Shown here piece by piece: positions 4,164 through 21,890 of a stretch of 21,890 bases of DNA. The position numbers and the translations under genes are program-made. Source of the stretch: a virus (lineage: Duplodnaviria; Heunggongvirae; Uroviricota; Caudoviricetes); IMG/VR virus record IMGVR_UViG_2531839180_000003, positions 1 to 21,890 of that record; one strand, written 5' to 3'. Every line of letters starts with the position of its first letter. Positions within the stretch are counted from its first letter, which is position 1. The notes beneath the pieces were generated by a model. That model had not been told where the DNA came from, ran no database searches, and worked only from the letters and a program-made list of their open reading frames with translations.

Positions 4164-4406
4164 GTGACATTTGAAGAAGTCCAGCAACATAAAAAGTTTC
4201 ATGATTTTGATGATCTGGAAACCATGACAGCAAAAAAATATCGCCGTCTGCTTTCTTCCGATGCGTTGTTTGTTGTGGATCATCATGATTTTCTGCGTAG
4301 CTCACTGACCGGGGAAATTTTCGCAACCAACCGTGAGCAGGTGGAAGCGATGATCGAATATCTGTGGAAAATAAGGCGCAGAATGCGAGATCCCGTGAAA
4401 CGGTAA
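4164..4406 (+). CDS. hypothetical protein (start ambiguous between ATG 4110 and GTG 4164)
   Basis: Track ORF 4110..4406. The ATG at 4110 overlaps ssb by 32 nt. The in-frame GTG at 4164 is preceded by GAGGGGA. Followed by the terminator at 4415-4443. Confidence 0.4.
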   Translation: MTFEEVQQHKKFHDFDDLETMTAKKYRRLLSSDALFVVDHHDFLRSSLTGEIFATNREQVEAMIEYLWKIRRRMRDPVKR

Positions 4407-4414
4407 AATAATAA

Positions 4415-4443
4415 AGGCCTGGTAAAATCCAGGCCATTTTTTT
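4415..4443. terminator. bidirectional rho-independent terminator between convergent genes
   Basis: Stem AGGCCTGG (4415-4422) / CCAGGCCA (4429-4436), loop TAAAAT, then a T-run to 4443. The upstream A-run gives a U-tract on the opposite strand. Confidence 0.7.
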
Positions 4444-4948: not shown

Positions 4949-5234
4949 GATGCGTCCTTTGTTGTAGTCAGAGACAGCAATAATAGGCCATGGTTTACTT
5001 CTTTTGTAAATTATTTGTTCGTGTTCTTTCGTGGTTGTTCGGTCTGACTGACAGGTGTTTACATACTGATTTTTATGTATATGTTGGAGCGTGGCACTCA
5101 GACGTGAGCCGCCACAATGCCGCCTGACCCCCTGCGCGATGCCGGGTTGATCTGCGAGATGCCGAGAGTGTCGGGCGGCGCTCCCCCCGTGTTGGTTTCA
5201 CGTCCTGAATCTTAACCAATACGAGAAAACCTTC

Positions 5235-6404
5235 ATGAAGAAATTAATCGAACTCCGCCAGCAAAAAAACGCCCTGAAAAACCAGATGCGATCCCTGCTG
5301 GAAAAAGCCGACAGTGAAAACCGTAGTCTGAACGCTGAAGAAGGCAAACAGTTTGATGAACTGCGTGCAAAAGCTGATGCCCTCGACACAGAAATTTCCC
5401 GCCTCGAGTCTGTGGCTGATGAAGAACGCAGCAAGCCAGGAACGGGCATCCAGAAATTATCATCTGATGAATTGCGTAACTACATCGTAACCGGAGATGT
5501 GCGATCACTGTCCACCAGCACTGACAGCGGCAGGGATGGCGGATATACCGTAATTCCTGAGCTTGATCGCGAAGTCATGCGCCAGCTACAGGATGACAGT
5601 GTTATGCGCGTGATCGCGACCGTGAAGACCGCAAAATCAAATGAGTTTCAGAAACTGGTTTCCACTGGCGGCGCAACTGTAGGACGAGGCACAGAAGGCA
5701 GCGCACGCAGTGAAACCAACACCCCGAAAATTGAACGCGTAACCATCAAGTTGAATCCGATCTACGCCTACCCGAAAACCACGCAGGAAATCCTGGATTT
5801 TTCAGAGGTGGATATTCTGGGCTGGTTATCCTCCGAAATTGCCGACACGTTCGCCAGCACCGAAGAGGATGATTTTGTTAATGGCGACGGTAACGGCAAG
5901 CCGAAAGGCTTCATGGCTTACACCCGTGCGGCGACCAGTGACAAAACCCGCGCTTTTGGCACCATTGAAAAAATAGTAGCGGCAAGTGGAACCGCCATTA
6001 CAGCGGACGAACTGATCGACATTCTCTACAAGCTGAAAGCGAAATACCGCAAAAATGCCGTCTGGGTGATGAACTCGGGCACGGCAGGGACACTACAGAA
6101 GCTGAAAAATGAGAACGGCGATTATATCTGGCGCGACAGCCTTAAAGAAGGTGCGCCGGATATGTTGCTTGGTCGTCCTGTTTACTGCCTGGAGTCCATG
6201 CCGGACATCGGCGCAGGAAAAGCACCGCTAGCGGTTGGCGATTTCAGTCGTGGTTATTTCATCGTTGATCATGTAACAGGGATTCGCACCCGACCGGACA
6301 ACATTACTGAACCCGGATTCTACAAGGTCCACACGGATAAATATCTGGGCGGTGGTGTGGTGGATTCAAACGCCATCAAAATTCTGGAAATGAAAGCTGG
6401 CTAG
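5235..6404 (+). CDS. HK97-family major capsid protein with N-terminal coiled-coil delta domain
   Basis: 389 aa. Coiled-coil N-terminus (LRQQKNALKNQMRSLLEKA...), then capsid body with the NGDGNGKPKG motif matching HK97 gp5 NGDGTG and a conserved C-terminal region. Confidence 0.9.
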   Translation: MKKLIELRQQKNALKNQMRSLLEKADSENRSLNAEEGKQFDELRAKADALDTEISRLESVADEERSKPGTGIQKLSSDELRNYIVTGDVRSLSTSTDSGRDGGYTVIPELDREVMRQLQDDSVMRVIATVKTAKSNEFQKLVSTGGATVGRGTEGSARSETNTPKIERVTIKLNPIYAYPKTTQEILDFSEVDILGWLSSEIADTFASTEEDDFVNGDGNGKPKGFMAYTRAATSDKTRAFGTIEKIVAASGTAITADELIDILYKLKAKYRKNAVWVMNSGTAGTLQKLKNENGDYIWRDSLKEGAPDMLLGRPVYCLESMPDIGAGKAPLAVGDFSRGYFIVDHVTGIRTRPDNITEPGFYKVHTDKYLGGGVVDSNAIKILEMKAG

Positions 6405-6416
6405 TCATGAGTAAGG

Positions 6417-6438
6417 AGGAGGCTGCGGCCTCCTTTTT
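6417..6438 (+). terminator. intrinsic terminator or attenuator immediately after the major capsid gene
   Basis: Stem AGGAGGC (6417-6423) / GCCTCCT (6428-6434), loop TGCG, then TTTT (6435-6438), 13 nt after the capsid stop codon. Confidence 0.55.
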
Positions 6439-6458
6439 CAGCTTTATGGAGTACACCG

Positions 6459-7019
6459 ATGAAAAACACCGATTTTGAAATCCGCACATCTGAACTGACC
6501 GCCAGCAATAAAAAGCTGGTGGGGTATGCCGTTCGCTGGAACAGCCTTTCAGAAATTATCTGGGACGAATTCCGCGAACAGTTCACGCCGGGGGCTTTTG
6601 CTGACTATCTGGCGACGGGTAATGATGTGCGCTGCCTGTATGAGCATGACTATACCCAACTGCTGGGGCGCACCAAATCCGGCACTCTGGTACTGACTGA
6701 GGATAACACCGGGTTACGTTTTGAACTGACACCGCCGGATACCCAGCTTGGAAAAGATGTGCTTACGCTGGTGGAGCGTGGCGACATTACAGGAATGAGC
6801 TTTGGTTTTCGCGCATTATGCGAGGAGTGGAGTATCGCGCAAAAACCGTATCTGCGTACCGTAACCGCCGCTGAACTCCGTGAAATCACAATAACGTCGA
6901 TGCCTGCTTATCCAGAATCTGGCGTGGAGATTGCCCACCGTTCGTTGTTTGCACAGCACCCTGAATTACGTCCGACAGGAAATAATCGTCATCGCTGGTC
7001 TGAGCTGGCGGGGTTGTGA
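6459..7019 (+). CDS. HK97-family prohead protease
   Basis: 186 aa with GGAG Shine-Dalgarno. Motifs such as GMSFGF and the overall pattern fit the prohead serine protease (S78) family. Position is adjacent to capsid and portal. Confidence 0.8.
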   Translation: MKNTDFEIRTSELTASNKKLVGYAVRWNSLSEIIWDEFREQFTPGAFADYLATGNDVRCLYEHDYTQLLGRTKSGTLVLTEDNTGLRFELTPPDTQLGKDVLTLVERGDITGMSFGFRALCEEWSIAQKPYLRTVTAAELREITITSMPAYPESGVEIAHRSLFAQHPELRPTGNNRHRWSELAGL

Positions 7020-7020
7020 T

Positions 7021-8235
7021 ATGTGGTGGCCTTTTAGTCGTAAAAAAAGCGAGCAGCGTAACCTGTCCATTGATGATTTTCTGGCGCTGTCCGGCGTACC
7101 GAATACCGGATCCGGAGAATATGTTTCTGCTGGGACGGCTGAATCATTGCCTGCAGTGATGAATGCGGTTTCTGTCATCGCTGAGGCGGTGGCCACGATG
7201 CCGTGTTATCTGTATCTGGTACGTAATGACAAGGGCAGGGAGGCGCGGGAATGGCTGGACAGTCACCCGGTAGATATTCTGCTGAATGAGCAGCCTAATT
7301 CGTGCCAGACACCTTACCAGTTTAAACGCACAATGATGCGTCACTGCCTGCTGAACGGTAACGCCTATGCGGTTATTGAGTGGGGGCAGGACGGGCAGCC
7401 AAAATCACTTCATCCTTATGCGCCGAGGTGTGTTGTACCGGAACGCACAGGCGCACACAAATACCGCTATACCATCACCGAACCCTGTACAGGAACGGTG
7501 CGCACGTATTTACAGGAAGAAGTTTTGCATCTCCGCTATGCCTCGGATGATGGCTTTCTGGGGCGTTCCCCCGTCACGATTTGCCGTGAGGCGCTGGGGC
7601 TTGGCCTTGCTCAACAGCGTCACGGAGCCAGCATTATGAAAGATGGCATGATGGCGGCAGGGATTATCACGTCAGGCGAATGGCTGGACGGCGTGAAAGG
7701 TAAACAGGCATTGGATGCTCTGGAACGCTACAAGGGGGCGAAAAATGCCGGAAAAACGCCAATCCTTGAAGGGGGCATGGATTACAGGCAACTGGGAATG
7801 AGTAACCAGGATGCGGAATGGCTGGCCTCCCGTCGCTTCTCCATTGAAGACATCGCCCGCATGTTCAACGTATCGCCTATTTTTCTGCAGGAATACAGCA
7901 ACAGCACCTACAGCAATTTCAGCGAGGCAAGCCGCGCGTTTCTGACCATGACAATGCGCCCGTGGCTGGCGAACTTCGAACAGCAAATCAAGGCCGCTTT
8001 GCTGGTGGCTTCTCCCGTACCTGGTACCCGTTATCTGGTTGAGTTTGATTCAGCCGATTTATTACGCGCCACACCCACCGAACGTTATGCCACGTATGAG
8101 AAAGGGATTAAGAACGGGATCATGAATCCGAACGAAGCCCGTGAGCGTGAGGGTATGCCGCCGCGTGAAGGTGGTGATGAGTTCAGCCAGGCATGGAAAC
8201 AGACTGTGGAAATTAAAGGGAGAAAAGATGAGTGA
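7021..8235 (+). CDS. HK97-family portal protein
   Basis: 404 aa from the ATG at 7021, directly after the protease stop (track ORF extends to 6931). Portal-like C-terminal region ...NPNEAREREGMPP. Confidence 0.85.
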   Translation: MWWPFSRKKSEQRNLSIDDFLALSGVPNTGSGEYVSAGTAESLPAVMNAVSVIAEAVATMPCYLYLVRNDKGREAREWLDSHPVDILLNEQPNSCQTPYQFKRTMMRHCLLNGNAYAVIEWGQDGQPKSLHPYAPRCVVPERTGAHKYRYTITEPCTGTVRTYLQEEVLHLRYASDDGFLGRSPVTICREALGLGLAQQRHGASIMKDGMMAAGIITSGEWLDGVKGKQALDALERYKGAKNAGKTPILEGGMDYRQLGMSNQDAEWLASRRFSIEDIARMFNVSPIFLQEYSNSTYSNFSEASRAFLTMTMRPWLANFEQQIKAALLVASPVPGTRYLVEFDSADLLRATPTERYATYEKGIKNGIMNPNEAREREGMPPREGGDEFSQAWKQTVEIKGRKDE

Positions 8236-8530
8236 AGCCAGAATTACACCTGATGAAGTCAGGGCACATCTTCGACTTGATGATGATTTATCCGGTGAAG
8301 GCGAACTTCTGAAAATGTATACCGATGCGGCGCTGGAAGCCTGCCAGAAGCATATCGGGAAACGTTTTGAAGACGGGCTGGAATTTACCCCGGCAATGCG
8401 TGTTGGTTGCCTGATGTACATCGCTTTCCTGTACGAGAACCGGGAAGCGGTTTCACCAGTGGAGCACTCGGAACTGCCTATGGCTATTTCTGCGCTCTGG
8501 TCAGTTTATCGTGACGTAGGGGTGTACTGA
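8228..8530 (+). CDS. gp6-like head-tail connector (head completion) protein
   Basis: 100 aa from the ATG at 8228, overlapping the portal stop as ATGAGTGA, with AGGGAG Shine-Dalgarno. Pattern RAHLRLDDD...AALEA...FLYENRE is typical of phage gp6-like connectors. Confidence 0.7.
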   Translation: MSEARITPDEVRAHLRLDDDLSGEGELLKMYTDAALEACQKHIGKRFEDGLEFTPAMRVGCLMYIAFLYENREAVSPVEHSELPMAISALWSVYRDVGVY

Positions 8531-8970
8531 TGCCGTGGCAACCATTAAGGCGATGCACTGAGCCTGGCTGTAATAAGCGCGTGAAGTCCGGCAAGTGTGA
8601 AGAGCACAGGCGGGCTGCATGGCGTGCAGAGGATGCCAGACGGGGACACCGCCGCGCGCGCGGGTATTCCCGACAGTGGGACAAATACCGCGCCCTGTAC
8701 CTGAGCAAAAACCCGTTATGCGTGCGTTGTCTGGCTAAGGGGATTTATACGCCAGCTCTTGTGGTGGATCACATCATTCCCATCAATGGCGGCGGTGATG
8801 TTCTCTTCTGGCCTGAGTGGAATCACCAGGCATTGTGCCAGACGTGCCACAACCGTAAGACGACACGAGAAGATCCAGCCACGAAAGCAAACCGTAAAGC
8901 GGGCATGTATCGCGAGCAGGAAGAACGGGCGGCACACCGTAACGACTGGATGTATGGCGATGATGACTGA
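8530..8970 (+). CDS. phage-associated HNH endonuclease
   Basis: 146 aa. Cys pairs (CTEPGC, CVRC, CQTCHNRK) and VDHIIP...N...H fit an HNH zinc-binding nuclease. Start overlaps the connector stop as TGATG. Lies upstream of terS as in HK97-type cos phages. Confidence 0.85.
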   Translation: MPWQPLRRCTEPGCNKRVKSGKCEEHRRAAWRAEDARRGHRRARGYSRQWDKYRALYLSKNPLCVRCLAKGIYTPALVVDHIIPINGGGDVLFWPEWNHQALCQTCHNRKTTREDPATKANRKAGMYREQEERAAHRNDWMYGDDD

Positions 8971-9258
8971 ACAGGAGCAAACCAGGCTGATACGTGGACT
9001 GATAAGGCAGCGTGACACATGGAAGACACAGGAGACAGAGCACAAAGCCAACAGGACTGGGCGCACAAAACGCACCACAGCGAAGCGATTAACCGACCGT
9101 GACCGCGAGGTCATGGAATGTTTTCGCAATCGCTGGTGAGGCCGTCAGAGGGGGTGGGGGTGGTTTTCAGGACGAAACCGTCCCTGCCGGACACCGACCG
9201 CCCCCTCAAATTTTTGTGCACGGTAATTTTTTTGAAAATAATTGGGCGAAAAAAGAAC

Positions 9259-9615
9259 ATGGCAAGACCACCAAAAGCCCCCGCTTACCTGGATGAAATC
9301 GCGGTCAGGCAGTGGAAGGAAAAATCGCGCCAGCTTTCCGGGCGGGAAGACCTTACCCCCGCCGACTGGAGCAATCTGGAACTGTATTGCGTTAACTACT
9401 CTATATACCGCAAAGCCGTCGAAGACCTTGCGACGCGCGGGTTCAGCATTGTTAACAGTCAGGGCAGCGAGAGCAGAAACCCCGCACTGAGCGCAAAGGC
9501 TGACGCAGAAAGAATAATGATCAAAATGGCTTCTTTGCTGGGTTTTGACCCGGTAAGCCGTCGCAGAAATCCACCGGAAACAGAGGAAGAGGACGAACTT
9601 GACCGCCTGGCATGA
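9259..9615 (+). CDS. terS: terminase small subunit (P27-family-like)
   Basis: 118 aa from the ATG at 9259; the track ORF from 9118 has a low-complexity N-terminal extension that is probably non-coding. MARPPKAP...LDE...W...LELYC pattern and position directly upstream of terL. Confidence 0.7.
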   Translation: MARPPKAPAYLDEIAVRQWKEKSRQLSGREDLTPADWSNLELYCVNYSIYRKAVEDLATRGFSIVNSQGSESRNPALSAKADAERIMIKMASLLGFDPVSRRRNPPETEEEDELDRLA

Positions 9616-11260
9616 GTACGCAGAAGGCGTAAAAAACGGCAAAATTACGGCCTGTAAACGACTGAAACAGGCTGTTAAACGGTATTTTTCTGACCTTGAA
9701 AACTCCCTTTACACGTTCGATCCGGAGGTCGTGGAGCGGTTTATTGCCTTTTCCCGGGTGTGCCCGCACGTAAAAGGCGCAATGCGCGGTAGCCCCATTG
9801 AACTTGAGCCGTGGCAGCAGTTCGCCTTTGCCTGCATCCTGGGATTTAAGGTTAAGGCCACCGGACGGCGCAAATACACCAGCGCATTCATTGAAGTACC
9901 GCGAAAAAATGCCAAATCCACGGTCGCCGCTATCCTGGCTAACTGGTTTCTGGTTATGGAAAACGGGCAGCAGGATATTTACACCGCCGCCGTGAGTCGT
10001 GATCAGGCGCGGATCGTGTTTGATGATGCGCGTCAGATGTGCCTTTTATCCCGACCGTTACGAAAGCGGGTAAATATTCAGGCGCACAAGGTGATACACC
10101 CGAAAACCAACAGCCTGTTAAAGCCACTGGCAGCAAAAGCGGCAACCATTGAGGGGACAAACCCGAGTCTTGCCATTGTGGATGAATATCACCTGCACCC
10201 AGACAACGGGGTTTATTCCGCACTTGAACTGGGGATGGGGGCGCGTCCGGAGGGGCTGTTATTTGCCATCACCACATCGGGGAGCAACGTTGTTTCAGCC
10301 TGTAAACAACACTACGACTATTGCTGCCAGATACTGGATGGTGAAGAGGTGAACGAATCCATGTTCGTACTGATTTACGAGCTGGATGATGAAAGCGAGG
10401 TTGACGATCCGGCGATGTGGATAAAGGCGAATCCCAATATCGATGTTTCCGTCGATCGTGAAAAACTGGCCTCAACCATCCAGAAAGCGCGGGGTATTCC
10501 GTCGCAGTGGGTGGAAATGCTCACCAAGCGATTCAATATCTGGTGTCAGGGGGCTACGCCGTGGATGGGTAACGGTGCATGGGCGGAGTGCGCCGGAACG
10601 TTCGCTGAGGCGGATTTATACGGGCAGGAGTGCTATGCGGGGCTGGACTTATCATCAACCAGCGATATTTCCAGCGTGTGCTATGCCTTTCCGGTCGGTA
10701 AAAAGATTATGCTGGTTTCACGTCACTATCTACCGGAATTTCAGCTACAGAACCCTGCCAATAAAAACCGCGCCATCTATCGCCAGTGGGCAAAGGCGGG
10801 CTGGATACGCACAACACCGGGTGACTGCATTGATTATGACCGTATCCGTGATGACATCATGGCGGATGCAGAGAATTTCAATATCAGGCTGGTGGGTTTC
10901 GATACATGGAACGCCACGCACCTGAGGACGCAGCTACAGGGAGCGGGATTTGAGGTGGAGCCGTTCCCGCAAACGTACCTTCGTTTTAGTCCGGCGGCGA
11001 AATCGTTCGAAGTTTTTGTTAACCGGAAGGTGATTGTTCATCGTGGTGATCCGGTGCTGGCCTGGTCAATGAGTAATGTTGTGATGCAGAGTGACGCGAA
11101 CGCCAATATCAAGCCGAACAAGAAAAAATCATCCAATAAGATAGACCCGAGCGTTGCGGCGCTGATGGCGTTTGGCACATTCCAGGCTGAGCATGAGGAA
11201 TTTGCATTTGATATGAGCGACAGCCAGAAAGAGCGACTTGCGGCATTTGATGGGGTATGA
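9599..11260 (+). CDS. terL: terminase large subunit
   Basis: 553 aa from a TTG start at 9599, preceded by GAGGAAGAGGA, overlapping terS by 17 nt. ATPase N-terminal domain and nuclease C-terminal domain pattern typical of Terminase_1-type large subunits. Confidence 0.9.
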   Translation: MTAWHEYAEGVKNGKITACKRLKQAVKRYFSDLENSLYTFDPEVVERFIAFSRVCPHVKGAMRGSPIELEPWQQFAFACILGFKVKATGRRKYTSAFIEVPRKNAKSTVAAILANWFLVMENGQQDIYTAAVSRDQARIVFDDARQMCLLSRPLRKRVNIQAHKVIHPKTNSLLKPLAAKAATIEGTNPSLAIVDEYHLHPDNGVYSALELGMGARPEGLLFAITTSGSNVVSACKQHYDYCCQILDGEEVNESMFVLIYELDDESEVDDPAMWIKANPNIDVSVDREKLASTIQKARGIPSQWVEMLTKRFNIWCQGATPWMGNGAWAECAGTFAEADLYGQECYAGLDLSSTSDISSVCYAFPVGKKIMLVSRHYLPEFQLQNPANKNRAIYRQWAKAGWIRTTPGDCIDYDRIRDDIMADAENFNIRLVGFDTWNATHLRTQLQGAGFEVEPFPQTYLRFSPAAKSFEVFVNRKVIVHRGDPVLAWSMSNVVMQSDANANIKPNKKKSSNKIDPSVAALMAFGTFQAEHEEFAFDMSDSQKERLAAFDGV

Positions 11261-11265
11261 CGAGA

Positions 11266-11547
11266 ATGACTGAAACTGATCTACTAAAAATAATTCGCCG
11301 CATTACCGGAATCAGTCAGCAGCCTGACGAACAGGCTACACAGCCGGACAGCGTGATAGCCGAAAATTACGCGCGTGTGGTGGCTGAGGTAATGCGCCGT
11401 GACGGTATTGAGCTTAACGGCGTGGATATGCGCAACATACGAACCAGAGTTCTTGAGTTGCTGGCATACCGTCGCCGTTCTCAACAACGGAGGGAGAGCG
11501 CGAAAAATACTTACCAGTGGAGGAAGCCGGAGCACTTACGGCGGTAA
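11266..11547 (+). CDS. hypothetical protein
   Basis: 93 aa from the second in-frame ATG just after the terL stop. No recognisable motif. Confidence 0.4.
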   Translation: MTETDLLKIIRRITGISQQPDEQATQPDSVIAENYARVVAEVMRRDGIELNGVDMRNIRTRVLELLAYRRRSQQRRESAKNTYQWRKPEHLRR

Positions 11548-11564
11548 CTGGTTGATATTACCGA

Positions 11565-12176: not shown

Positions 12177-12368
12177 TTGAGGCTTTTAATTTATGCATTC
12201 TTAAAAACTTATTTATTATCAATTACTAACAGGAATTAGTAAGAAATACCCGTATTACCTGATCTGGATAATGCCAGCGTAGTCCTGGCGATTATTCAAG
12301 ATAAAATCAAAGACTTATCTGCGATTTTCGAACCGTTTTGTTTAGCCGATCACATCGAGGCTCACAAA

Positions 12369-13727
12369 ATGGGACACCAGACCATACGCCACACCATTAA
12401 ACGTAACGGGGTTTATTACGTTCGTTTCCGCCTGCCTGATAATAAGTTTTTCCGTAAGTCGTTAGAGACTGACAGCCACACCCAGGCGCAGTTGCTCATG
12501 TCTTTTGCTTCTCCTGTAATTCCTCTGGTTCAACGTGGAGCTATCCAACCGGATCACTTCGGTAAGCGTCTTTCTGAGTATGGCAATAGTCTGAAGCAGC
12601 AGAATGAACAATGGCTGGCGCACCAATTTCTGAATGATGCGCGGCGCAATATTCAGCCGATAGTTGTTCATGAAGACCGCGAGGTTGTCTCTCCTTCGGT
12701 AGATGAGGAAGAACAAACTGAAGCACAACCAGAACACGTGTTAACACTGGCTGGCGCGTGGAATATGTATAAAGAGGAGAAAGCCCAAAACTGGACGAAG
12801 GCTATCTCTCAAGCCAATGAGCGCTTTATGGAGGTGATGTTGATTGTCTTGGGTTCATCAACTGATGTAACCACGATTACCAAGCAAGACATTAAACAGG
12901 TAATGGAGGTTGTTGAAAACTTGCCTAAGCGTGTTGTGCAGCCTTATCGGTCAATGACGGTTCAGCAACTGATCGAGTGTGATGATGTTCCGCCAGAAGA
13001 TTTGGTTGGCGCTGAGTCTATCCACAAGCATTTGAAGATTTACAAATCGCTGTTTAAAACCTTCCTGACAGACAATAAAGATATTCTGGAGAAGTCTCCG
13101 ACTGATGGGATCGTCGCCGCACCGTCGAAAACGAGGTTTGGAGCATACAGTGCAGCAGAAATGAGAAAGTTTGTGGGGTGGGCGCTCAGGCAGCCTGACG
13201 GTTGGCAGAAGTGGATCACTCTTTTGTTGGCGTACACGGGAGCCAGAAGAGGCGAGATCGCAAAGCTGGAAAAATCTCATATCAAATATGATGAGGATAG
13301 TCAGCGGCACTATCTCCTTATCGCGGAAGGAGGACAGGGGAAAACTGAGAACGCGACTAGACAGGTTGTAATACATCCCAAACTGATCGAATGGGGATTC
13401 CTTGATTTTGTAAACCGCCAATGGAAAGAGAAAATATTCTCGCCTGTGTCGGGTAAGAACATGCCGAAGATCGGCAAAGTTTTAGCAGATGTGCGTGATC
13501 AGCTTGGTATTCCTTATCTTGATGACTATGGGCAGCGGCGATTGGTGCATAGCTTCCGACATACCATGATTTCAACCTGTTTAGCTGGCTGGGTTGGCAA
13601 CTTAGCGCACTTGCAGCAGGTTGTAGGGCATGAGAAAAGCGGGGCAGGGATCACTAGAAGATACTTACACATTTTTCCTCTGAAAACTGTGTGTTACGTC
13701 ATTGATGGATTGTGTTGGAATGGCTAA
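12369..13727 (+). CDS. int: tyrosine recombinase (phage integrase family)
   Basis: 452 aa with GAGG Shine-Dalgarno. Catalytic signature elements TGARRGE (Arg I), HSFRHT (HxxR box II) and GHEKSGAGITRRYLH (His...Tyr). Confidence 0.85.
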   Translation: MGHQTIRHTIKRNGVYYVRFRLPDNKFFRKSLETDSHTQAQLLMSFASPVIPLVQRGAIQPDHFGKRLSEYGNSLKQQNEQWLAHQFLNDARRNIQPIVVHEDREVVSPSVDEEEQTEAQPEHVLTLAGAWNMYKEEKAQNWTKAISQANERFMEVMLIVLGSSTDVTTITKQDIKQVMEVVENLPKRVVQPYRSMTVQQLIECDDVPPEDLVGAESIHKHLKIYKSLFKTFLTDNKDILEKSPTDGIVAAPSKTRFGAYSAAEMRKFVGWALRQPDGWQKWITLLLAYTGARRGEIAKLEKSHIKYDEDSQRHYLLIAEGGQGKTENATRQVVIHPKLIEWGFLDFVNRQWKEKIFSPVSGKNMPKIGKVLADVRDQLGIPYLDDYGQRRLVHSFRHTMISTCLAGWVGNLAHLQQVVGHEKSGAGITRRYLHIFPLKTVCYVIDGLCWNG

Positions 13728-13837
13728 TAATTTGGGTGATGTCATAGTTTTACTGAATTTTCAGTGATATAAATCATGTAAAAATAAGGTGTTCTACGTA
13801 AGGCTATTTTTCTATACACAGCTAGCATAAAGGATTA

Positions 13838-15286
13838 ATGATGTTTATTAAAAAACTGAAGATAGAAAATTTTAAAGGGTATCACGGGGAAGATAATGAG
13901 TTGGAATTCAATATCCCTGATGGAGAAACGGAAGGTAGTGGACTTAATATATTTGTGGGTGAAAACAACGCCGGAAAATCCACTGTATTTGAAATTATAG
14001 ATTTTATAAAGGATGGAACCAAAAAGAACATTGAGGATCTTATATGCAAATCAGACCCGGCTAATATTGCTGAGAAGCTTTCAGCCGAGCTAACCTTCAC
14101 TGGAAACTTATCAGAAGTAATTGCCGCTCATGTACAAGCTAATAAAGTTGCAGCATTCACCTCGCATGTTTTTGAGGACGAGGGTGTTAATTATTTCAGA
14201 GTGAAGAGGTGTAGTGAGGTAGGGGAGAAGAAAATATTATTTTGGAACGGAAATGAATTTGTTAACCCAAGTGGTATAGATGCCCCATTTAAGAAGTTTT
14301 ATGATAATAACTTCATTTGGGCTGATACAAACCCAAGCAATGAAGCAAAGTTTGGCTCTACAACTATATGTGGTTCGCTTCTAAAAGAAATTGCTTTAGG
14401 CCATATTGAAACGGATGAGTATAGAGCGTTTTCTGAGCAATATCATCGCGTATTCAATCATCCTGAATCTGAGTTGAGACAAAAAATATCATTAGTCGAA
14501 GATCAAGTTAGAACAGTTTTTTCATCTCAATTTGGCATGGCAGATATTTCTTTCATTTTTGAGGAGTTGCAGGTAGAGAATTTCTTCAAAACTATTTCCA
14601 TCATGATTGATGATGGGGTGAATGTCCCAATGGGCGAAAAGGGGCATGGAATGCAAAGGGCACTAGCCCTATCATTACTTCAGGTGTATGCTGACATAAC
14701 GTGTAATGCGCATGGCGCTGGGATTAGCAAACCATTTTATCTTTTCATTGATGAACCTGAAATATGTCTTCATCCATCAGGCCAGCAGAAGCTTTTAGAA
14801 GCTTTAATGATTATCTCCAAAAGCAGACAGGTTTTTGTCACAACGCATTCGCCTTTCCTTTTATCTTCCCCTTATCTTAAAAATGTTGGCTTGTTTGTTT
14901 TCAAAAAAGAAAATAATAAGAATGTTGTGGAGAGAGCTGATACTTCTCCATGGTTCCCTTGGTCTCCATCGTGGGGGGAGATTAATTTCAAAGCATACAA
15001 TTTAGCAACCGTTGAATTGCATAATGAATTATATGGTTATTTGCAGGAAAAAAACTCCTGTCCGAGCGAAAAAGCAATGGAACAATGGCTAAATTCAAAT
15101 GGAATTGCATTTGATAAAGTATGGGTTAGAGAATTTAAAGGTGCAGCACAACCGCCAGCGGATACTACATTACAAACATTCATCCGTAATCACATACACC
15201 ACCCAGAGAATGTTACAATGCAATCTAATCGCTATACACAACAAGAATTACTAACTTCAATCCAACAAATGGTTGGTCTTCTATAA
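13838..15286 (+). CDS. ABC-type ATPase of the OLD/AAA_15-like class with unassigned ~140-aa C-terminal domain
   Basis: 482 aa. N-terminus KKLKIENFKGY, Walker A GENNAGKST, signature-like GHGMQRALALSL, Walker B/D-loop LFIDEPEICLHP, H-loop VTTHSP. No Toprim-like acidic motifs seen in the C-terminus, which contains RNHIHH (about residues 450-455). Visibly AT-rich. Own upstream intergenic region and own terminator. Confidence 0.8.
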   Translation: MMFIKKLKIENFKGYHGEDNELEFNIPDGETEGSGLNIFVGENNAGKSTVFEIIDFIKDGTKKNIEDLICKSDPANIAEKLSAELTFTGNLSEVIAAHVQANKVAAFTSHVFEDEGVNYFRVKRCSEVGEKKILFWNGNEFVNPSGIDAPFKKFYDNNFIWADTNPSNEAKFGSTTICGSLLKEIALGHIETDEYRAFSEQYHRVFNHPESELRQKISLVEDQVRTVFSSQFGMADISFIFEELQVENFFKTISIMIDDGVNVPMGEKGHGMQRALALSLLQVYADITCNAHGAGISKPFYLFIDEPEICLHPSGQQKLLEALMIISKSRQVFVTTHSPFLLSSPYLKNVGLFVFKKENNKNVVERADTSPWFPWSPSWGEINFKAYNLATVELHNELYGYLQEKNSCPSEKAMEQWLNSNGIAFDKVWVREFKGAAQPPADTTLQTFIRNHIHHPENVTMQSNRYTQQELLTSIQQMVGLL

Positions 15287-15291
15287 AGAAA

Positions 15292-15320
15292 AAGGCGAGC
15301 CCTTTGGCTCGCCTTTTAAT
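15292..15320. terminator. bidirectional rho-independent terminator between convergent genes
   Basis: Stem AAGGCGAGCC (15292-15301) / GGCTCGCCTT (15306-15315), loop CTTT, then TTTTAAT. The upstream A-run gives a U-tract for the minus strand. Confidence 0.75.
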
Positions 15321-15321
15321 A

Positions 15322-15513
15322 TTAATTTAATAACTTGCGCTTTTTAGATAATAGCACACTTAAAGCATATTCAAACCCGTGTTGCGCCTCTAGACGGCAT
15401 AGGGTGATATTACAGATCCCCAACTCCTTACACAGCGCCTTTCGGTTAATTACCTCCGCCGCGCCAGATACATAGACTTGACCAGCGCCGGGGATATTGA
15501 TTGAAACTTTCAT
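15322..15513 (-). CDS. hypothetical small protein, possibly a truncated head-module gene
   Basis: 63-aa ORF with GAGGT Shine-Dalgarno. Lies directly downstream of the E-like capsid gene and abuts the terminator and the AT-rich int/ATPase segment. Confidence 0.4.
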   Translation of the reverse strand: MKVSINIPGAGQVYVSGAAEVINRKALCKELGICNITLCRLEAQHGFEYALSVLLSKKRKLLN

Positions 15514-15603: not shown

Positions 15604-16632
15604 TTACTTCAGCGTGATAGTTGTAAGCCACTGAGGACGAAGCAGAAGAGGCAACAGAGAAAACTCTGACTGCATTTTAATCATCCCGTCATCGTCTACG
15701 CTGGTCCAGGCGTAGCGATCCTTAACGCCCCCCTTGACGGCCAGGCTTTGATTTCTGCTGCATGGCCCTGAAATTTTGCGCAAAAATGAATAATCGGAGT
15801 CGGTCATACGTGGGACAACCAGACCGGAGTTCTCACTCACCTTGTAAGTAGGGTCACCAGCCAGATCGACAAAGGTTACAGGACCCAGCGACATGGTATT
15901 AAAACCACTAAGCGCGTTAGGGATAACCACGCCGGAGATCTGCGCCTGCTGGACGCTGTGCAGAATAAATGCTTGGATCTCTTTGTTGGTGGCAATGACA
16001 TCATAGAGACCAGAATCACACAGGACATACAGACGGTCGCTATAGTTGCGGGCCGCGCCTAGCGCCTGGGAAACCTGGCGACGCAGTTTAGCAAGCTGTT
16101 GGTAAATAGAGGCATCCACGGAAGCATCCAGGGTGAAGGAAGCCGGGGAGGTCCCGAACACCTGATCGAAGGAGATGTCGCCGTCATCGGTATGGGGTGC
16201 GCTCACCTTACGCTCAAAGAGGGCCTCCGCCAGAGAAGTTTCCACAGTTCGGCGATAATCCTTTTCGAACTGTACAGCACGCTTGCTGATAACTTCAGTT
16301 ATTGCCATATCCTGATTAGTTGTTGGACTGATCAGCCCCTGCCAATCATGCGGGCGCACAAAGGCAGTCTCATGTACGACTGGGATCTCGGCATCACGGA
16401 AAACAGCGGTCGCCGCTTTCTGGTGGTTGGTGTCGGTGCCGTAGCGCGACACGGTTTCCAGTTTGGAATCTTCCGCATCAGTAATATCACTCACACGGGC
16501 ATTAGGGACGCTAGAGGAGCCTTTAGCGAACAGGTTCAAATCCTGAAGCAGGTAAGAGCCTTGTTTAGAATCCTTGATAGTTGCTACAAGGTCGAGCCCC
16601 TCATAGGTATTTTTAATATCTTTAACGCTCAT
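15604..16632 (-). CDS. major capsid protein, lambda gpE family
   Basis: 342 aa with GGAGG Shine-Dalgarno. C-terminal ...DRYAWTSVDDDGMIKMQSEFSLLPLL aligns by eye with lambda gpE ...ARYPKNWVTTGDPAREFTMIQSAPLMLL. Length matches gpE (~341 aa). Confidence 0.8.
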   Translation of the reverse strand: MSVKDIKNTYEGLDLVATIKDSKQGSYLLQDLNLFAKGSSSVPNARVSDITDAEDSKLETVSRYGTDTNHQKAATAVFRDAEIPVVHETAFVRPHDWQGLISPTTNQDMAITEVISKRAVQFEKDYRRTVETSLAEALFERKVSAPHTDDGDISFDQVFGTSPASFTLDASVDASIYQQLAKLRRQVSQALGAARNYSDRLYVLCDSGLYDVIATNKEIQAFILHSVQQAQISGVVIPNALSGFNTMSLGPVTFVDLAGDPTYKVSENSGLVVPRMTDSDYSFLRKISGPCSRNQSLAVKGGVKDRYAWTSVDDDGMIKMQSEFSLLPLLLRPQWLTTITLK

Positions 16633-16634
16633 TA

Positions 16635-16994
16635 TTAAGCCTCCATGCTGTTGTTATTGCCAATACGAATAGAACCATCTGCCGTTAGTCGCTTGATTGC
16701 TTCTTTCAGGGAGGCGGCATCTTTGGCGCGGAGGTTGAACGTGTTCATATATGCCAATCTGTCAACCACAACGATTGTCTTATTGTCGCCTGCGGAGACA
16801 TCTACCAGACAGATCAGAGGGGAGCCCTCGACAGCCTGATCGAACAATTCGTAGGTTTCAGCATTGAATACATCGCCACAGAATAGATCCGCTGGGACAG
16901 TGGCCCCTTTGATCTCGGTGCGGGAGAAGAGGTCGGAGGCGCTGTTAACCAGCACATCTGACATTCGTTTAGGGAACGACTCAGAAGTACGCAT
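16635..16994 (-). CDS. putative head decoration protein (lambda gpD-like position)
   Basis: 119 aa from the internal ATG at 16994 with AAGGAAA Shine-Dalgarno; the track N-terminal extension is low complexity. Sits immediately upstream of the gpE-like gene with a 2-nt gap. Similarity to gpD itself is not evident by eye. Confidence 0.45.
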   Translation of the reverse strand: MRTSESFPKRMSDVLVNSASDLFSRTEIKGATVPADLFCGDVFNAETYELFDQAVEGSPLICLVDVSAGDNKTIVVVDRLAYMNTFNLRAKDAASLKEAIKRLTADGSIRIGNNNSMEA

Positions 16995-18300
16995 AAAGGT
17001 TTTCCTTATGGAGGGTTTTAGACGTGGAGAGAGTCCACAGGGTGATCCGGTGCAACGCCGGATATAAGGACCGCCACAGAGGACAATCCGAATGATTGGA
17101 AGATGGGAGGCCGTGGATTGAATAGAAGAGGGCGGCATCATGCCGCCCTTTCTAATCTGGCTCTCTCTCACCCTCGCAGGGTGGGGGGAGGTGTAAACCT
17201 CTTTTTAGTGGTCACTCACCCGCCAGCGTCACGGGAGCAACCGCCAGCCAATGGGCAAATAACCACAAAAAAGAACCCGGAAGGAGACACCGGGATGAAG
17301 GCAATGTAACTTACTGTCTGATCACTTGTTTTCCTGTGTAGCCTCAGAGCCTTACATTATTTGCTTTCATGGTTCAGCAAAGAAGCCACAGAGGAAAACG
17401 GACGCCTGAAATACGCCCGGAAACCATCGAAGAAAATCAATAGTTTATCGTTGCAACTGGGGAACCACCCCGGCCCAACTGTGGACCCCGTGGAGGGTCG
17501 CTACAATCGAGGAGATCGCTTGTATTCTGAAGGGCCGCAGTTAGCGACGCTTTAGAATAGGGTCTGTGGCGCAAGCCCTATGATTAGAGGCGTTTTGAAT
17601 CATAGGAGTGTCATCAACTGGCGGAACTTGAGGAGTGGACCGCACACAAAGCATTCTGGCAAGTGGAGTTGAAAGAACGCTTTGGGTGAGGGCCGGGGCG
17701 GGGGAGAAGTCCGCCCGGCTCACTCAGTACAGACCCACAGGGGCTGGCTAAAGCACATGTTAATGAAAGTTCTGTACAGGTGTGAGGCGGTAAGCTGCAA
17801 AACGGCGATTTCGACATCCTCACCACATCACACACCATGAATACTATGTTATCACAAATGAGAATTATTATCAACAAGTATTAATTGCATTCCTCTTTTA
17901 TTTGTGGTCTTGCGTGGCTTCCCCACATATTGGGAAGAGAGGCAAATCAATTTTTATTAACTGGCGGGTAGGTTGTGGGTTTACATGTTGGCACTTTTGA
18001 CAACAAACCATGTAGCCCAAAAGGCACACAAGAGTATATAACTACATAAAACCTCGCTACGCTCGCCCTCCGGGCTACGGTTTTATTGATCTTATATTAT
18101 AACTTCATTCAATAACTAATTGTTTACACAATTAATTATTTCATTCGTTATAATGTGTTCTTGAAACCTTCCCGCCCTTCCGGGCTTACCAGGTTTTAGG
18201 CCGTTGGCCTGTTTTCCACAGTGTGGAGGCTCGCCTGTGTGGCTCACTCCAGGCAGGGACCCCGGAAATATTTTCCGGCCTGGGGTGTATCAATTTGAAA

Positions 18301-18346
18301 CAGGGGGGTGTGTCAGAATGACACAGGGGTGTGTCAAAATGGCACA
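18301..18346. repeat. tandem pair of dyad-symmetric sites (operator or iteron candidate)
   Basis: CAGGGGGGTGTGTCAGAATGACAC (18301-18324) and CAGGGGTGTGTCAAAATGGCACAC (18325-18346). Each contains GTGTCA-N3-TGACAC-like dyad symmetry. Flanking direct repeat ATAAGACTAA at 18349-18358 and 18374-18383. Confidence 0.55.
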
Positions 18347-18761
18347 CAATAAGACTAATTATAAAACTAACCCATAAGACTAACACCCAGGGCCAGGTCA
18401 AGACCTTTAAGGGAGTGTTGGGAAATCGTAGATTGATTGGTAAGAGACTGATCTCTTTAAGCGTCCTACAGACGCGCCTCTTTGGCAGCGCTCGCACCAG
18501 CGAGCAAGACCCCTTTGGAACACCGCACGATGTAAGGTGACCTCTGGGCGGCGGGGTGGCGGGCCCCCGGCCCGGTACACAGTGCCGCACAGCGTACAGA
18601 ACCACAAGCAGCAGAAGCCCCTAAACGCGCCGCTGTGGCGCTCTCTCATACGTAGAAAAGGAAACACCCTATAAACGCCCTCCGGCGCTCTGAGAGCCTT
18701 ACAGGGGGGCTGTGCATTTAGCACAATAAACAACCGAATGCAAGCGAATGCAAAAATATTC

Positions 18762-18790
18762 TTGCATTTTCATGTAAAATGGTGTAAAAT
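18762..18790 (+). promoter_or_regulatory. sigma70-like promoter with ATGCAA/TTGCAT repeats for the rightward operon
   Basis: -35 TTGCAT at 18762-18767, 17-nt spacer, -10 TAAAAT at 18785-18790. Direct repeats AATGCAA at 18737-18743 and 18747-18753 with inverted copy TTGCATT at 18762-18768. Confidence 0.45.
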
Positions 18791-18864
18791 AGATACCGTG
18801 ATGAGGTGGGTGGTTTGATATAAAAATCCCCATCATAATATAACGCACCTAACCGGAGAATGCA

Positions 18865-19290
18865 ATGAGTATTTACCTTGATGTTGAAAAAATGGTTGAA
18901 CGTATCGATCAGCGTGATTTGAGTCGTTCAACTCTTCAGGGACAACGTAGCCGATTCAAAGCCGCCGGGCGTACCGCTGAAGTGGAAGCAATCGGCAAGG
19001 CTCTGGAGATGACCAAATCCAGCGCCTCCGGCGTCCTCCGCCAGTCTCAGCGCCTTGCCACCAAAATTACAGAGATGGACGCAGAGAAAGCATTAGAGCT
19101 TAAAGCAACCGTTGCGCTGTTCGCTTCCAAGTCTACGGATCTGCAAGCCTCTATTGTGCTGGCTTTCCAATCCTTCTTTGAGGTTAAAGGTGTAACCCTG
19201 GACCACGATGAGGTGATGGCCCTGTTAATGTTGAAAGCATCAGCGGATTTTGAGGACATGACAGGCGAGCTACCAATTATTGTACATTAA
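18865..19290 (+). CDS. hypothetical protein
   Basis: 141-aa ORF with GGAGA Shine-Dalgarno. First gene downstream of the promoter at 18762-18790. Confidence 0.5.
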   Translation: MSIYLDVEKMVERIDQRDLSRSTLQGQRSRFKAAGRTAEVEAIGKALEMTKSSASGVLRQSQRLATKITEMDAEKALELKATVALFASKSTDLQASIVLAFQSFFEVKGVTLDHDEVMALLMLKASADFEDMTGELPIIVH

Positions 19291-19317
19291 TCAGTAACTT
19301 AATTTGGGAGGGTAACA

Positions 19318-19578
19318 ATGAATCACGTTTATACAGACTTGTCGGAATCCCGCCTGTTGTCTGGATATGCAAGCCAGATTGTGGAAGCTATCCAAAATGA
19401 TGAGTCTGCCCCGCACCTTTACGACGACATCCGCGAAATGCTCCAGCAGGTTAGCCCCTCTGGCATGATTACCATCGGTAACCCGGGAATTGTCGCCCCG
19501 GCGTCATGGTGGGGTGATTGGTTCGGCCTGGACCTCAGTGCTGAGGACATCGCAGAACTACAGGAGGTTGAATTATGA
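19318..19578 (+). CDS. hypothetical protein
   Basis: 86-aa ORF with a strong GGGAGGG Shine-Dalgarno. Stop overlaps the next start as ATGA. Confidence 0.5.
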   Translation: MNHVYTDLSESRLLSGYASQIVEAIQNDESAPHLYDDIREMLQQVSPSGMITIGNPGIVAPASWWGDWFGLDLSAEDIAELQEVEL

Positions 19579-19880
19579 ACGGTCTAACTATCCCGTTTGA
19601 ACATTTCCAGACCAACAAGATCGCCGGGGTAAATTTCACTGCTGTGATGAAACTGGTTTATTTCTTTCTTGATGCCAATAAGAACCAAGACGGCGTTATT
19701 CATATTTCCCAAACGGATCTTGCCGATATGGTCGGTGTCACTCGCGCAACAATAGGGAAGGTGATTAATAGTCTAAAAGAAATGGGCTTGTTGGTGAAAT
19801 CTGAACAGGTAGCGGGCAATGACATCCTGAATTACAAGACATTGCCTATTCGTCAATATGGGCGTGGTTACAGCAAATAA
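19575..19880 (+). CDS. winged-helix DNA-binding protein (paralog of 20044..20700)
   Basis: 101 aa with GGAGG Shine-Dalgarno. HTH-like segment ISQTDLADMVGVTRATIGKVINSLKEMGLL. Aligns with the N-terminal half of the 20044 product (shared FT..MK..Y, G.I, R.T, EMGL..K.EQV.G..LNY). Confidence 0.55.
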   Translation: MNGLTIPFEHFQTNKIAGVNFTAVMKLVYFFLDANKNQDGVIHISQTDLADMVGVTRATIGKVINSLKEMGLLVKSEQVAGNDILNYKTLPIRQYGRGYSK

Positions 19881-19889
19881 GGGGGTTTT

Positions 19890-20060
19890 ATGAAAATCGA
19901 CTTCCCGAAAGAACAAGCCGATCAGTTATATGCACTGGTAAGGGCGGGCGGTGGCGCTCCCCATACCATCGTTAAACAGGCGTTAGCCGCCTACCTTGAA
20001 AACCACCCTCTTTTAGTCGCTTCCGCAGAAGGAAAACAGCAAGATGACCACAGCAAGTAA
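19890..20060 (+). CDS. small ribbon-helix-helix-like protein (not in ORF track, under 60 aa)
   Basis: 56-aa ORF. ATG at 19890 preceded by AAGGGGG. MKIDFPKEQADQLYALV... has a strand-helix-helix pattern. Its 3' end overlaps the 20044 start. Confidence 0.4.
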   Translation: MKIDFPKEQADQLYALVRAGGGAPHTIVKQALAAYLENHPLLVASAEGKQQDDHSK

Positions 20061-20700
20061 CGGATTTGTAATGTTGGAAAATGGCCTCCTCAACCTGGGG
20101 AAGGTCGCCGGGAAAACTTTCACCGGGAACATGAAAATCACTTACAGCCTGATCCAAGGCTTTGAGAAAAACGGGCAGATCGCCTACTTCTCTCACTCGC
20201 ATCTTCAAACCCAGCTTGGAGCGAGCCGATCCACAGTGATCCGTATGTTGTCGGATATGGTGGAAATGGGCCTGATTAACAAAACCGAGCAGGTGAACGG
20301 CGGGACGCTGAATTACACAGTTAACCCGATCACCCCGGAAATGGTGGGAACCCCTGAAGCCGCCAAACCTGAAGCAACCAAACCAACCGCAGCACCCCAA
20401 CCCGTGGAGACCGTAGAGAATGCAGGAAGTAACCAGCCTGGAATTGTTAAGTGTGGATCTGACAGCGTACATAGAAGCCGCCCGGCGTCGCCTGGAGCTT
20501 CTCCTGTGGACCACAGCGGGGGCGCTGTTCGTCCCGCTCCTGTCCCTGTACCAGTAGAGCAGGGGGCCGCAAACGATGATTTACGCAACCTTGTTATTAA
20601 TTTTGTGGCTGGCTCTAATGTGTTGATGGTCAACGGCTTGCCTGTTGAATATTTGGAGCCAGAAGAAAGCGCCATTGATCAGTTTGGAGATGCCTTCTAA
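20044..20700 (+). CDS. winged-helix DNA-binding protein with Pro/Ala-rich linker and C-terminal domain
   Basis: 218 aa with GGAAA Shine-Dalgarno. N-terminal domain paralogous to 19575..19880. Low-complexity linker PEAAKPEATKPTAAPQP...PAPVPVPV. Confidence 0.55.
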   Translation: MTTASNGFVMLENGLLNLGKVAGKTFTGNMKITYSLIQGFEKNGQIAYFSHSHLQTQLGASRSTVIRMLSDMVEMGLINKTEQVNGGTLNYTVNPITPEMVGTPEAAKPEATKPTAAPQPVETVENAGSNQPGIVKCGSDSVHRSRPASPGASPVDHSGGAVRPAPVPVPVEQGAANDDLRNLVINFVAGSNVLMVNGLPVEYLEPEESAIDQFGDAF

Positions 20701-20777
20701 AAATCCTGAAATTGATTTCCCACAAATAACACTCTACACCAAACACCCGCCGTTTACAACCCTTTGGAGAGTCTCGC

Positions 20778-21344
20778 ATGAATAACTTTATCACTACTAA
20801 ATTCAACGCCTTAACCTCTGAAGAGGAAGCCGCAGTAAATGCACTGGCGGAGAAATTAGCAGCAAACAAGCCCCGTCGGATTATGGATGAGAGCCATTTA
20901 ACCCCGGATCAAATCCTGAAGATCAAGCGGGCCTGTATTCAGGGCCACAGCGCTAAAGCCATCATCGCGGCCTTTAACGTTTCGTTGGCCTATGTGCTGA
21001 GAGTAAAGCGCTCCCACAACCCTATGAAGTACCAGAAGACCCCGCTCACCTTGCCAGAAAAGGCAGTGTTGGCCCAGCAGATGGACGCCGATAATTTGAG
21101 CGTGGATAAAATGGCGGAACTTCTGGGGATCAACAGTAAGATGGTTTCCCTACTTCTTACCCAACCTTCACCCCGTTACCTGGTGGAGCAAATGCTCCCT
21201 TATGACCAAGTTTTACAGAACCTCCGCAGCGCCCGCTACGTGGAAAGCCCTGTATACAAAAAAGGGACGAGTATGCGCCGTGTGCGACTGATCGTTTCTG
21301 AAGCTCGTCAGCAGGCCCGCCAGGTAATCATTAAATCCCGGTAA
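20778..21344 (+). CDS. hypothetical protein with two HTH-like segments
   Basis: 188 aa with GGAGAG Shine-Dalgarno. HTH-like segments HSAKAIIAAFNVSLAYVLRV and LSVDKMAELLGINSKMVSLL. Confidence 0.5.
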   Translation: MNNFITTKFNALTSEEEAAVNALAEKLAANKPRRIMDESHLTPDQILKIKRACIQGHSAKAIIAAFNVSLAYVLRVKRSHNPMKYQKTPLTLPEKAVLAQQMDADNLSVDKMAELLGINSKMVSLLLTQPSPRYLVEQMLPYDQVLQNLRSARYVESPVYKKGTSMRRVRLIVSEARQQARQVIIKSR

Positions 21345-21346
21345 TT

Positions 21347-21529
21347 ATGTCCAACCCAACGGAATGGGACCTAAAGGATTACTTAGGTTCCAAACTGGTT
21401 AAGCGTCAGACAAGACTCTCTAACTTTCTCGCCTCCCTCCTCTATATCCCCTTTAAGCCCGCCTCCCTCTTCCTGTGGGGTGTGGTACTCACTTTACTTA
21501 TAAGGACTCTCTCAAATGCACCCCTTTGA
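21347..21529 (+). CDS. hypothetical small protein with hydrophobic C-terminal segment
   Basis: 60-aa ORF starting 2 nt after the previous stop. Weak Shine-Dalgarno. C-terminal LFLWGVVLTLLI stretch. Confidence 0.3.
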   Translation: MSNPTEWDLKDYLGSKLVKRQTRLSNFLASLLYIPFKPASLFLWGVVLTLLIRTLSNAPL

Positions 21530-21890
21530 ACTACTGAAACGCCAACTTGACGAAATGGCGAAATCCCGCCAGGTAGAGCAGGCCCAAGAGGAAGCCGCCG
21601 CCCGTGAACTCCGCAAGGCACAGGCCGATCTGTCACTGGATGAGGCTATCGCTCTGTACGTTACACAGTTGGAAGCCTCCACAGAGGCCGCAGACAGCGT
21701 CCAGAGGGGCCGCGCCATTAAGAGCCGGGGAATTGCTCTGTGTCACAAGGATCAGGGCTACAGCGCCAACGGTCGCCCGGTCTCTCTCCTGATCAAATCC
21801 GCAGACCTGCCAGCAGGTCACCGCCGGGTAATCATCAACAAGGCAGCAGGGCGCACCCTGAAGGCTATCAATCTAGAAGGGGCTGAATAA
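21516..21890 (+). CDS. hypothetical protein
   Basis: 124-aa ORF with AAGGA upstream. Stop codon is the last three bases of the window. Confidence 0.45.
   Translation: MHPFELLKRQLDEMAKSRQVEQAQEEAAARELRKAQADLSLDEAIALYVTQLEASTEAADSVQRGRAIKSRGIALCHKDQGYSANGRPVSLLIKSADLPAGHRRVIINKAAGRTLKAINLEGAE

Follow-up and report, generated by a model that had tools for sequence, protein, structure and literature searches.

An OLD-type ABC ATPase fused to a HEPN-like domain, a candidate single-gene defense nuclease carried by an island at the thiM riboswitch

We have analyzed a stretch of 21,890 nucleotides (nt) from a virus of the Caudoviricetes (IMG/VR record IMGVR_UViG_2531839180_000003, positions 1 to 21,890; from here on the window), and specifically a gene located at 13838–15286 that a preliminary description, made from the sequence, had singled out as a possible anti-phage system. 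Our analysis indicates that this gene probably codes for a partner-independent defense nuclease made of a single chain, in which an ABC ATPase of the OLD type would act as sensor or switch and a HEPN RNase, fused behind it, as effector. Two kinds of evidence carry this reading, the conservation and predicted fold of the two halves of the protein and the genomic contexts in which its relatives are found.

An OLD-type ATPase followed by a HEPN-like domain

The gene, its domains and the motifs discussed below are the following (coordinates of the window, residues of the encoded protein, aa for amino acids):

13838..15286, plus strand: ABC ATPase-HEPN fusion gene, 482 aa, taken from the list of open reading frames (ORFs)
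13838..14932, plus strand: OLD/AAA_15-type ABC ATPase domain, residues 1–365, with a helical insert at about 177–232
13958..13984, plus strand: Walker A or P-loop, GENNAGKST, residues 41–49; G41, N43, N44, G46 and K47 invariant in 61 homologues
14735..14755, plus strand: Walker B, FYLFIDE, residues 300–306; F300, I304, D305 and E306 invariant in the same 61 homologues
14933..15283, plus strand: C-terminal HEPN-like domain, residues 366–482 (117 residues)
15020..15028, plus strand: H395-N396-E397 of helix-2, candidate for the other half of the active site; H395 and E397 conserved in 90% or more of 50 divergent sequences
15185..15202, plus strand: predicted catalytic R-N-x3-H motif, RNHIHH (R450 to H455), followed by PEN

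The N-terminal half (residues 1–365) matched Pfam AAA_15 (E 1.5e-29), AAA_21 (8e-19), AAA_23 and SMC_N. The best PADLOC model was Old (E 1.5e-45), followed by AriA, GajA, PtuA, HEC-01A and MAD3, and in NCBIfam only sub-threshold matches were obtained for the fusion protein. P2 old was also matched by tblastn (E 2e-13). Besides the Walker A, which has the pattern G41-x4-G-K47-S-T, and the Walker B, the 61 homologues conserve without exception Q273 of the signature G269-H-G-M-Q273-R and the H-loop histidine H337. Judging from these motifs the ATPase is complete, with its catalytic residues intact. Two regions of this half are candidate sensor surfaces. One is the segment WADTNPSNEAKFGSTTICGSLLKEI (residues 161–185, window 14318–14392), near-invariant in the 61 homologues and with an AlphaFold pLDDT value (predicted local distance difference test) below 50, that could be a flexible sensor or a Q-loop-like element. 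The other is the insert at 177–232, which is short and made of three helices in the predicted structure.

Residues 366–482 gave no Pfam match even at E values up to 10, nor any match to Toprim or DUF4435, and the alignment to the Old model covered profile positions 1–352 of 578 only, i.e., the ATPase half. With this extent of the Old match and a helical C-terminus, a Toprim or a degenerate OLD nuclease was ruled out. Folded alone with AlphaFold2 (AF2), the domain produced a model with a pLDDT of 92.4 and a predicted template modeling score (pTM) of 0.83, in which helices are located at 379–387, 392–405, 445–454 and 468–481, and an insert at 411–443, formed by a helix (411–420) and a small beta-meander (427–443), separates the second from the third. 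The model has the topology by which HEPN domains are defined (PMC3710099). According to the same survey, the Rx4-6H motif of HEPN domains closes helix-3 and extends into the loop that leads to helix-4, with N, D or H right after the Arg, and HEPN families often have a conserved acidic residue in helix-2, typically as Ex3[KR].

In the AF2 model RNHIHH closes the third core helix (445–454). When 50 divergent members (down to 31% identity) were aligned, the only invariant columns were L398, R450 and H455, so that R450 and H455 are the sole invariant polar residues, and H395, E397, Y399, H454, P456 and N458 were each conserved in at least 90%. The consensus of the motif over some 140 representatives is [TS][FY][IV]R[NH]xxHHPEN, the position after the Arg being N or H, while His452 of the window protein varies among homologues. 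E397 lies on helix 392–405, within H-N-E-L-Y-G as against the typical Ex3[KR]. Overall, the blocks FPWSPSWGEI, LHNELYG and FIRNHIHHPEN are among the best conserved of the whole protein. The preliminary description had already recognized an OLD/AAA_15-like ATPase in the N-terminal part of a 482-aa protein devoid of a C-terminal Toprim, and had offered HEPN as a hypothesis from RNHIHH at residues 450–455. The ATPase was recovered by the profile matches and the invariant motifs, no model covers residues 366–482, the motif is located where it had been placed, and the HEPN proposal is now backed by the invariance of its Arg and final His and by its position in the predicted fold. On the basis of this model we regard the C-terminal domain as a HEPN domain with a good degree of confidence.

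Several comparisons weigh against this assignment. None of the 50 members reached a Pfam HEPN model, the best being one match to HEPN_RiboL-PSP with an E of 0.066, and searches of the PDB sequences with profiles of 22 or of 50 members of the family matched nothing. The alignments by hhalign of the family profile to RnlA (K-12), an AbiJ_NTD4 protein and a RiboL-PSP-HEPN protein were not significant; only a segment of RnlA was aligned at all (ERHSLFH to IRNHIHH, 10 columns), to which we give no evidential weight. The search of the PDB with Foldseek returned noise (ribosomal protein S7, root mean square deviation of about 16 Å). However, HEPN families are mutually undetectable by plain hidden Markov models (PMC3710099), so the lack of a profile match weakens the assignment rather than excluding it.

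Homologues and their genomic contexts

We found more than 1,200 homologues of P0001, the identical protein of Enterobacter ludwigii, and the family is widespread in Gamma- and Betaproteobacteria. A truncated gene or pseudogene was ruled out, since more than 120 full-length homologues align with 100% coverage and conservation is among the highest in the C-terminal blocks, as described. We also carried out an exhaustive HMMER search with residues 345–482 against 1.84 billion cluster representatives. The C-terminal domain was found in 391 clusters (50% identity), in nearly all of which it forms the C-terminus of a protein of 450–500 aa. Among the best 150 of these 391 clusters, the longer (about 650 aa) and shorter (330–410 aa) variants were AAA_15 proteins as well, with an extension in the former and an N-terminal truncation in the latter, indicating that the domain is confined to the AAA_15 fusion.

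Ten genomic neighborhoods were inspected, with the following locations of the fusion gene:

Enterobacter, E. coli and Klebsiella-type copies: always preceded by the same integrase of 452 aa, within an island whose genes include capsid-like and tape-measure-like ones
Acinetobacter: between gyrA and a transporter gene
Vitreoscilla: between DUF2797 and fumarase genes
Aeromonas: beside a CoiA_N-like gene and cysS
Dickeya: defense island that also contains DUF4238, a second AAA_15 protein and a RiboL-PSP-HEPN protein
Shewanella: near a UvrD-like helicase and an HNH/methylase module
Erwinia: adjoining an Eco29kI restriction-modification pair and an insertion sequence element
Serratia marcescens (64% identical; L019/L020, 6001–7461): in a prophage remnant, flanked by its portal gene and a replication gene of the P2 gpA type
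Kingella oralis (L015–L017) and Neisseria animaloris (L022/L023), 6001–7450: inside type I-C CRISPR-Cas loci, with cas3 on one side and cas5d on the other

These contexts are typical for defense genes. The site between gpA and portal is the old/tin defense hotspot of P2 (Rousset et al.; PMC9122126). The Kingella and Neisseria homologues are full-length, 56–57% identical, and lie on the same strand as the cas genes with short intergenic gaps, an arrangement that suggests co-transcription with them. No partner gene was common to the ten neighborhoods, the neighbors being different in every lineage sampled, and two of the copies (Acinetobacter and Vitreoscilla) are flanked by housekeeping genes only.

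An island at the thiM riboswitch

The features of the window surrounding the fusion gene are:

about 1–11550: left-hand capsid-forming satellite-like element, with primase (1365–3197), major head protein (5235–6404), portal (6931–8235) and large terminase (9599–11260)
12243..12282, plus strand: attL remnant, 3' part of the duplicated thiM thiamine pyrophosphate (TPP) riboswitch sequence; exact 40-mer, positions 62–85 of Rfam TPP
12369..13727, plus strand: tyrosine integrase of the island, 452 aa; PHROG integrase E 3e-27, Pfam Phage_integrase E 1.8e-5
13728..13837, plus strand: upstream intergenic region of the fusion gene with its ribosome-binding site (RBS), a spacer of 110 nt after the integrase stop codon
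15290..15317, both strands: bidirectional intrinsic terminator, from a terminator scan and the sequence

In E. coli an island of 13.7 kb is found between rcnR and thiM, bounded by a direct repeat of 76 nt (L002, 13509–13583 and 27206–27281). The right-hand copy falls within the annotated thiM TPP riboswitch and the repeat corresponds to the 5' part of the riboswitch, therefore the island integrates into the riboswitch. The window retains only the 3' part of the left repeat, the remainder having been replaced by the end of the neighboring satellite, which suggests that one att site is occupied in tandem by the island and the satellite. Homology to independent copies of the island begins at the att remnant (12243), and the elements located to the left of the same att differ between genomes (an integrase with AbiJ_NTD4 in L003, DUF8093 in L004). 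On these grounds the possibility that the fusion gene is cargo of the left-hand satellite was ruled out; it is the integrase-proximal cargo of the thiM-riboswitch island, at a site that accumulates elements in tandem. The integrase adjoins the fusion gene in every Enterobacteriaceae copy inspected. In the E. coli variants of the island similarity stops just past the terminator of the ATPase gene, and the rest of the genes follow another arrangement. Integrase and ATPase gene behave as a module.

The fusion gene lies within the most AT-rich stretch of its part of the window, with a GC content of 0.37–0.40 over 13501–15500 and about 0.47–0.55 in the flanks. In the spacer upstream, an RBS (AAGGA, 13830–13834) precedes by 3 nt the first and by 6 nt the second ATG of a tandem ATG ATG, and because of this spacing translation likely starts at the second one (13841), giving a product of 481 aa, the form in which P0001 is deposited in databases. 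The promoter consensus scan found only a weak match (13702–13731, 9/12), not above the shuffled expectation. At the other end, 4 nt 3' of the stop codon, the terminator has a perfect stem of 12 bp, a CTTT loop of 4 nt and flanking A- and T-tracts, and scores on both strands. Thus the AT-richness relative to the flanks, the upstream region of its own and the bidirectional terminator, all of them put forward in the preliminary description, were found again. Its single-gene view is also consistent with the ten contexts, in which no partner nuclease is constant. The gene had furthermore been placed beside an integrase at the edge of a satellite-like element; the integrase is indeed the neighbor, but both genes open their own island of 13.7 kb, and the satellite (1–11.5 kb) is a separate element.

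A few other features of the island deserve mention. An ORF of 63 aa at 15322–15513 (minus strand), which several assemblies annotate as a gene, converges with the ATPase gene on the terminator that they share. No family was matched by this ORF, and from its sequence, which includes CKELGICNITLCRLEAQHGF, it resembles a small protein of the helix-turn-helix or excisionase type. Since the distant homologues lack it in their vicinity, it is not a partner of the ATPase. Further along, the part of the island included in the window (15604–21890) contains a major capsid protein called by PGAP (342 aa, no Pfam or PHROG match). There are also genes, here and in L001 and L002, for helix-turn-helix and replication-initiator-like proteins, for a Phage_phiTE_211 protein, for a tape-measure-like TMP_3 protein and for a tyrosine recombinase of small size (about 185 aa). 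These modules differ in order and orientation between two E. coli variants of the island, which is a candidate satellite or defective tailocin-like unit. In this otherwise compact island about 1.7 kb (17172–18864) has no called gene; seven E. coli copies, which have no annotation there, conserve it at about 87%, it had no Rfam match even at E<=0.1 and it includes a tandem pair of 21 nt, ACAGGGGGGTGTGTCAGAATG, at 18300–18341. Possible roles for this stretch are those of a packaging site, of an iteron-bearing origin or of a long non-coding RNA.

Relationship to known systems

An ABC-HEPN family named after ERFG_01251 is known from the computational survey of Anantharaman et al. (2013, Biol Direct 8:15; PMC3710099), who noted members with the Rx4-6H retained embedded in CRISPR-Cas neighborhoods of Neisseria and Kingella. 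The protein studied here shares with them the N-terminal ABC ATPase, the C-terminal HEPN-like domain that keeps Rx4-6H and the location between cas3 and cas5 in Kingella and Neisseria. No demonstrable difference was found, the comparison with the prototype (gi 422781011, E. coli) being by description only. We infer from the architecture and the CRISPR context that the fusion gene very probably belongs to this family. The same authors reported the HEPN domain of the family also fused to HEPN/Toprim-NTD1; no such fusion was present among the best 150 of our 391 clusters, the ten shorter proteins (332–411 aa) being N-terminally truncated AAA_15 fusions. Our literature searches retrieved neither an experimental study of an AAA_15/OLD-HEPN fusion nor any later mention of the ERFG_01251 family, and HepS, RemAIN, HEC-08 and PD-T4-4 were set aside as different systems.

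The closest precedent in architecture is that of PrrC and RloC, in which a single chain also has an N-terminal ABC-type NTPase regulating a C-terminal HEPN RNase. They produce abortive infection through tRNA cleavage and are often embedded in or beside other defense systems. However, their ATPase is AAA_13/Rad50-like whereas the one found here is AAA_15/OLD-like, with no match to PF13166, and their HEPN domain was considered divergent in the 2013 survey while that of the ERFG_01251 type is classical, MNT-like (PMC3710099). Unlike PrrC, there is no obligatory type Ic restriction-modification host (no hsdMSR neighbors in the ten contexts) and, unlike RloC, neither a long coiled coil nor a zinc hook. 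The fusion protein is therefore akin to PrrC and RloC but not a member of either.

In the ATPase the closest relative by sequence is P2 Old and the Class 1 OLD proteins, which are likewise single-gene and borne by mobile elements, and the Serratia homologue occupies the very hotspot of P2 old between gpA and portal. In OLD, though, the effector is a C-terminal metal-dependent Toprim nuclease, here replaced by the 117-residue HEPN-like domain, and the protein is not an OLD nuclease since the Toprim half is absent and the C-terminus is helical. The two-gene systems with AAA_15 ATPases are different as well. PARIS (AriAB), Septu (PtuAB), Gabija (GajAB) and HEC-01 to HEC-03 depend on a partner, separate or fused, of the Toprim, HNH, helicase, NERD or PIN kind, and in contrast to all of these and AbiL, with its partner AbiLii, the gene described here has no conserved partner, its effector being fused.

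Proposed mechanism and alternative explanations

By analogy with PrrC/RloC and P2 OLD, in the uninfected cell an oligomer of the ATPase would keep the HEPN domains apart or occluded. A cue from the phage, be it a DNA structure, an anti-defense protein or a nucleotide change, would alter the ATP-dependent engagement of the heads, and two HEPN domains could then pair to form a composite, metal-independent RNase site. The RNA cut would most plausibly be the anticodon loops of tRNAs, leaving 2',3'-cyclic phosphate ends, after which translation would stop and the infection abort. We infer the gating by the ATPase oligomer from PrrC and RloC, from the need of HEPN RNases in general to dimerize in order to build their composite site, and from a recent report on P2 OLD, described as an autoinhibited tetramer whose ABC sensor binds single-stranded DNA hairpins or DNA ends and releases a fused tRNA nuclease.

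A more specific version, which we find doubtful, would make the protein an OLD with its effector swapped. The OLD-type sensor would read the cues now reported for P2 OLD, single-stranded DNA hairpins at phage origins or unprocessed DNA ends upon inhibition of RecBCD or SbcCD, with a HEPN tRNA nuclease as output, and the copies between cas3 and cas5 would be a built-in backup. In Neisseria and Kingella these copies would fire on DNA intermediates generated by Cas3 or when interference is stalled by an anti-CRISPR. If this were true, a type I CRISPR system and an abortive RNase would be functionally coupled, in analogy to type III systems with their accessory CARF-HEPN nucleases. More unlikely, in our view, is that the C-terminal domain is not a HEPN RNase at all; the failure of the profile and structure searches described above fits with a family-specific helical domain in which H395, E397, H454, H455 and E457 bind metal and form another hydrolytic or ligand-binding site, while the predicted topology and the invariant R450 and H455 point to HEPN.

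We give little probability to a HEPN-like domain that is catalytically silent, serving for RNA or nucleotide binding or for dimerization, in a protein that would be an ATPase regulator of an effector whose gene lies elsewhere or a non-nuclease DNA-binding ATPase. Some HEPN domains, among them MtlR and the forms associated with nucleotidyltransferases, do bind without catalysis (PMC3710099), many AAA_15 ATPases use separate effectors (PARIS, Septu, HEC-01 to HEC-03) and in Kingella and Neisseria the gene is inside a cas operon. However, non-catalytic HEPNs typically lose the Rx4-6H (PMC3710099) that is invariant here, and no partner is conserved across the ten contexts, two copies having only housekeeping genes as neighbors. 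The gene might also serve the island rather than the host, as an addiction or stabilization module or as a weapon against helper or competitor phages. The Enterobacteriaceae copies are always tied to the same integrase and to an island with capsid- and tape-measure-like genes, the integrase-ATPase module stays constant while the rest is rearranged, and the island and a capsid-forming satellite lie in tandem. Against this, homologues that are 56–67% identical have no mobile element or integrase nearby, and others are within CRISPR-Cas operons. We consider such a role improbable, and it would in any case overlap with defense rather than exclude it. The single-chain ATPase-HEPN defense nuclease is the reading that we prefer.

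Implications

The idea of an ABC ATPase-HEPN protein is not new, as the family to which this gene very probably belongs was catalogued by computation in 2013. The concept is 13 years old and has the precedent of PrrC and RloC, which makes the finding useful more than surprising to the specialist. The gene is a good and inexpensive target for experiments. The models of PADLOC 2.0 and NCBIfam fail to recognize the family, and genome annotation labels it only as 'ATP-dependent nuclease'. As one protein with clear predicted catalytic residues, it is a tractable model for how the engagement of ATPase heads gates the dimerization of HEPN domains, and the copies located within type I-C CRISPR operons and at the old hotspot of P2 supply hypotheses about the trigger. 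If our reading is true, the family would constitute a compact abortive-infection system of a single gene and about 480 aa, and the rule by which the effectors of ABC-ATPase sensors are interchangeable (Toprim, HNH, PIN, NERD, HEPN) would be widened to an OLD-type sensor with HEPN.
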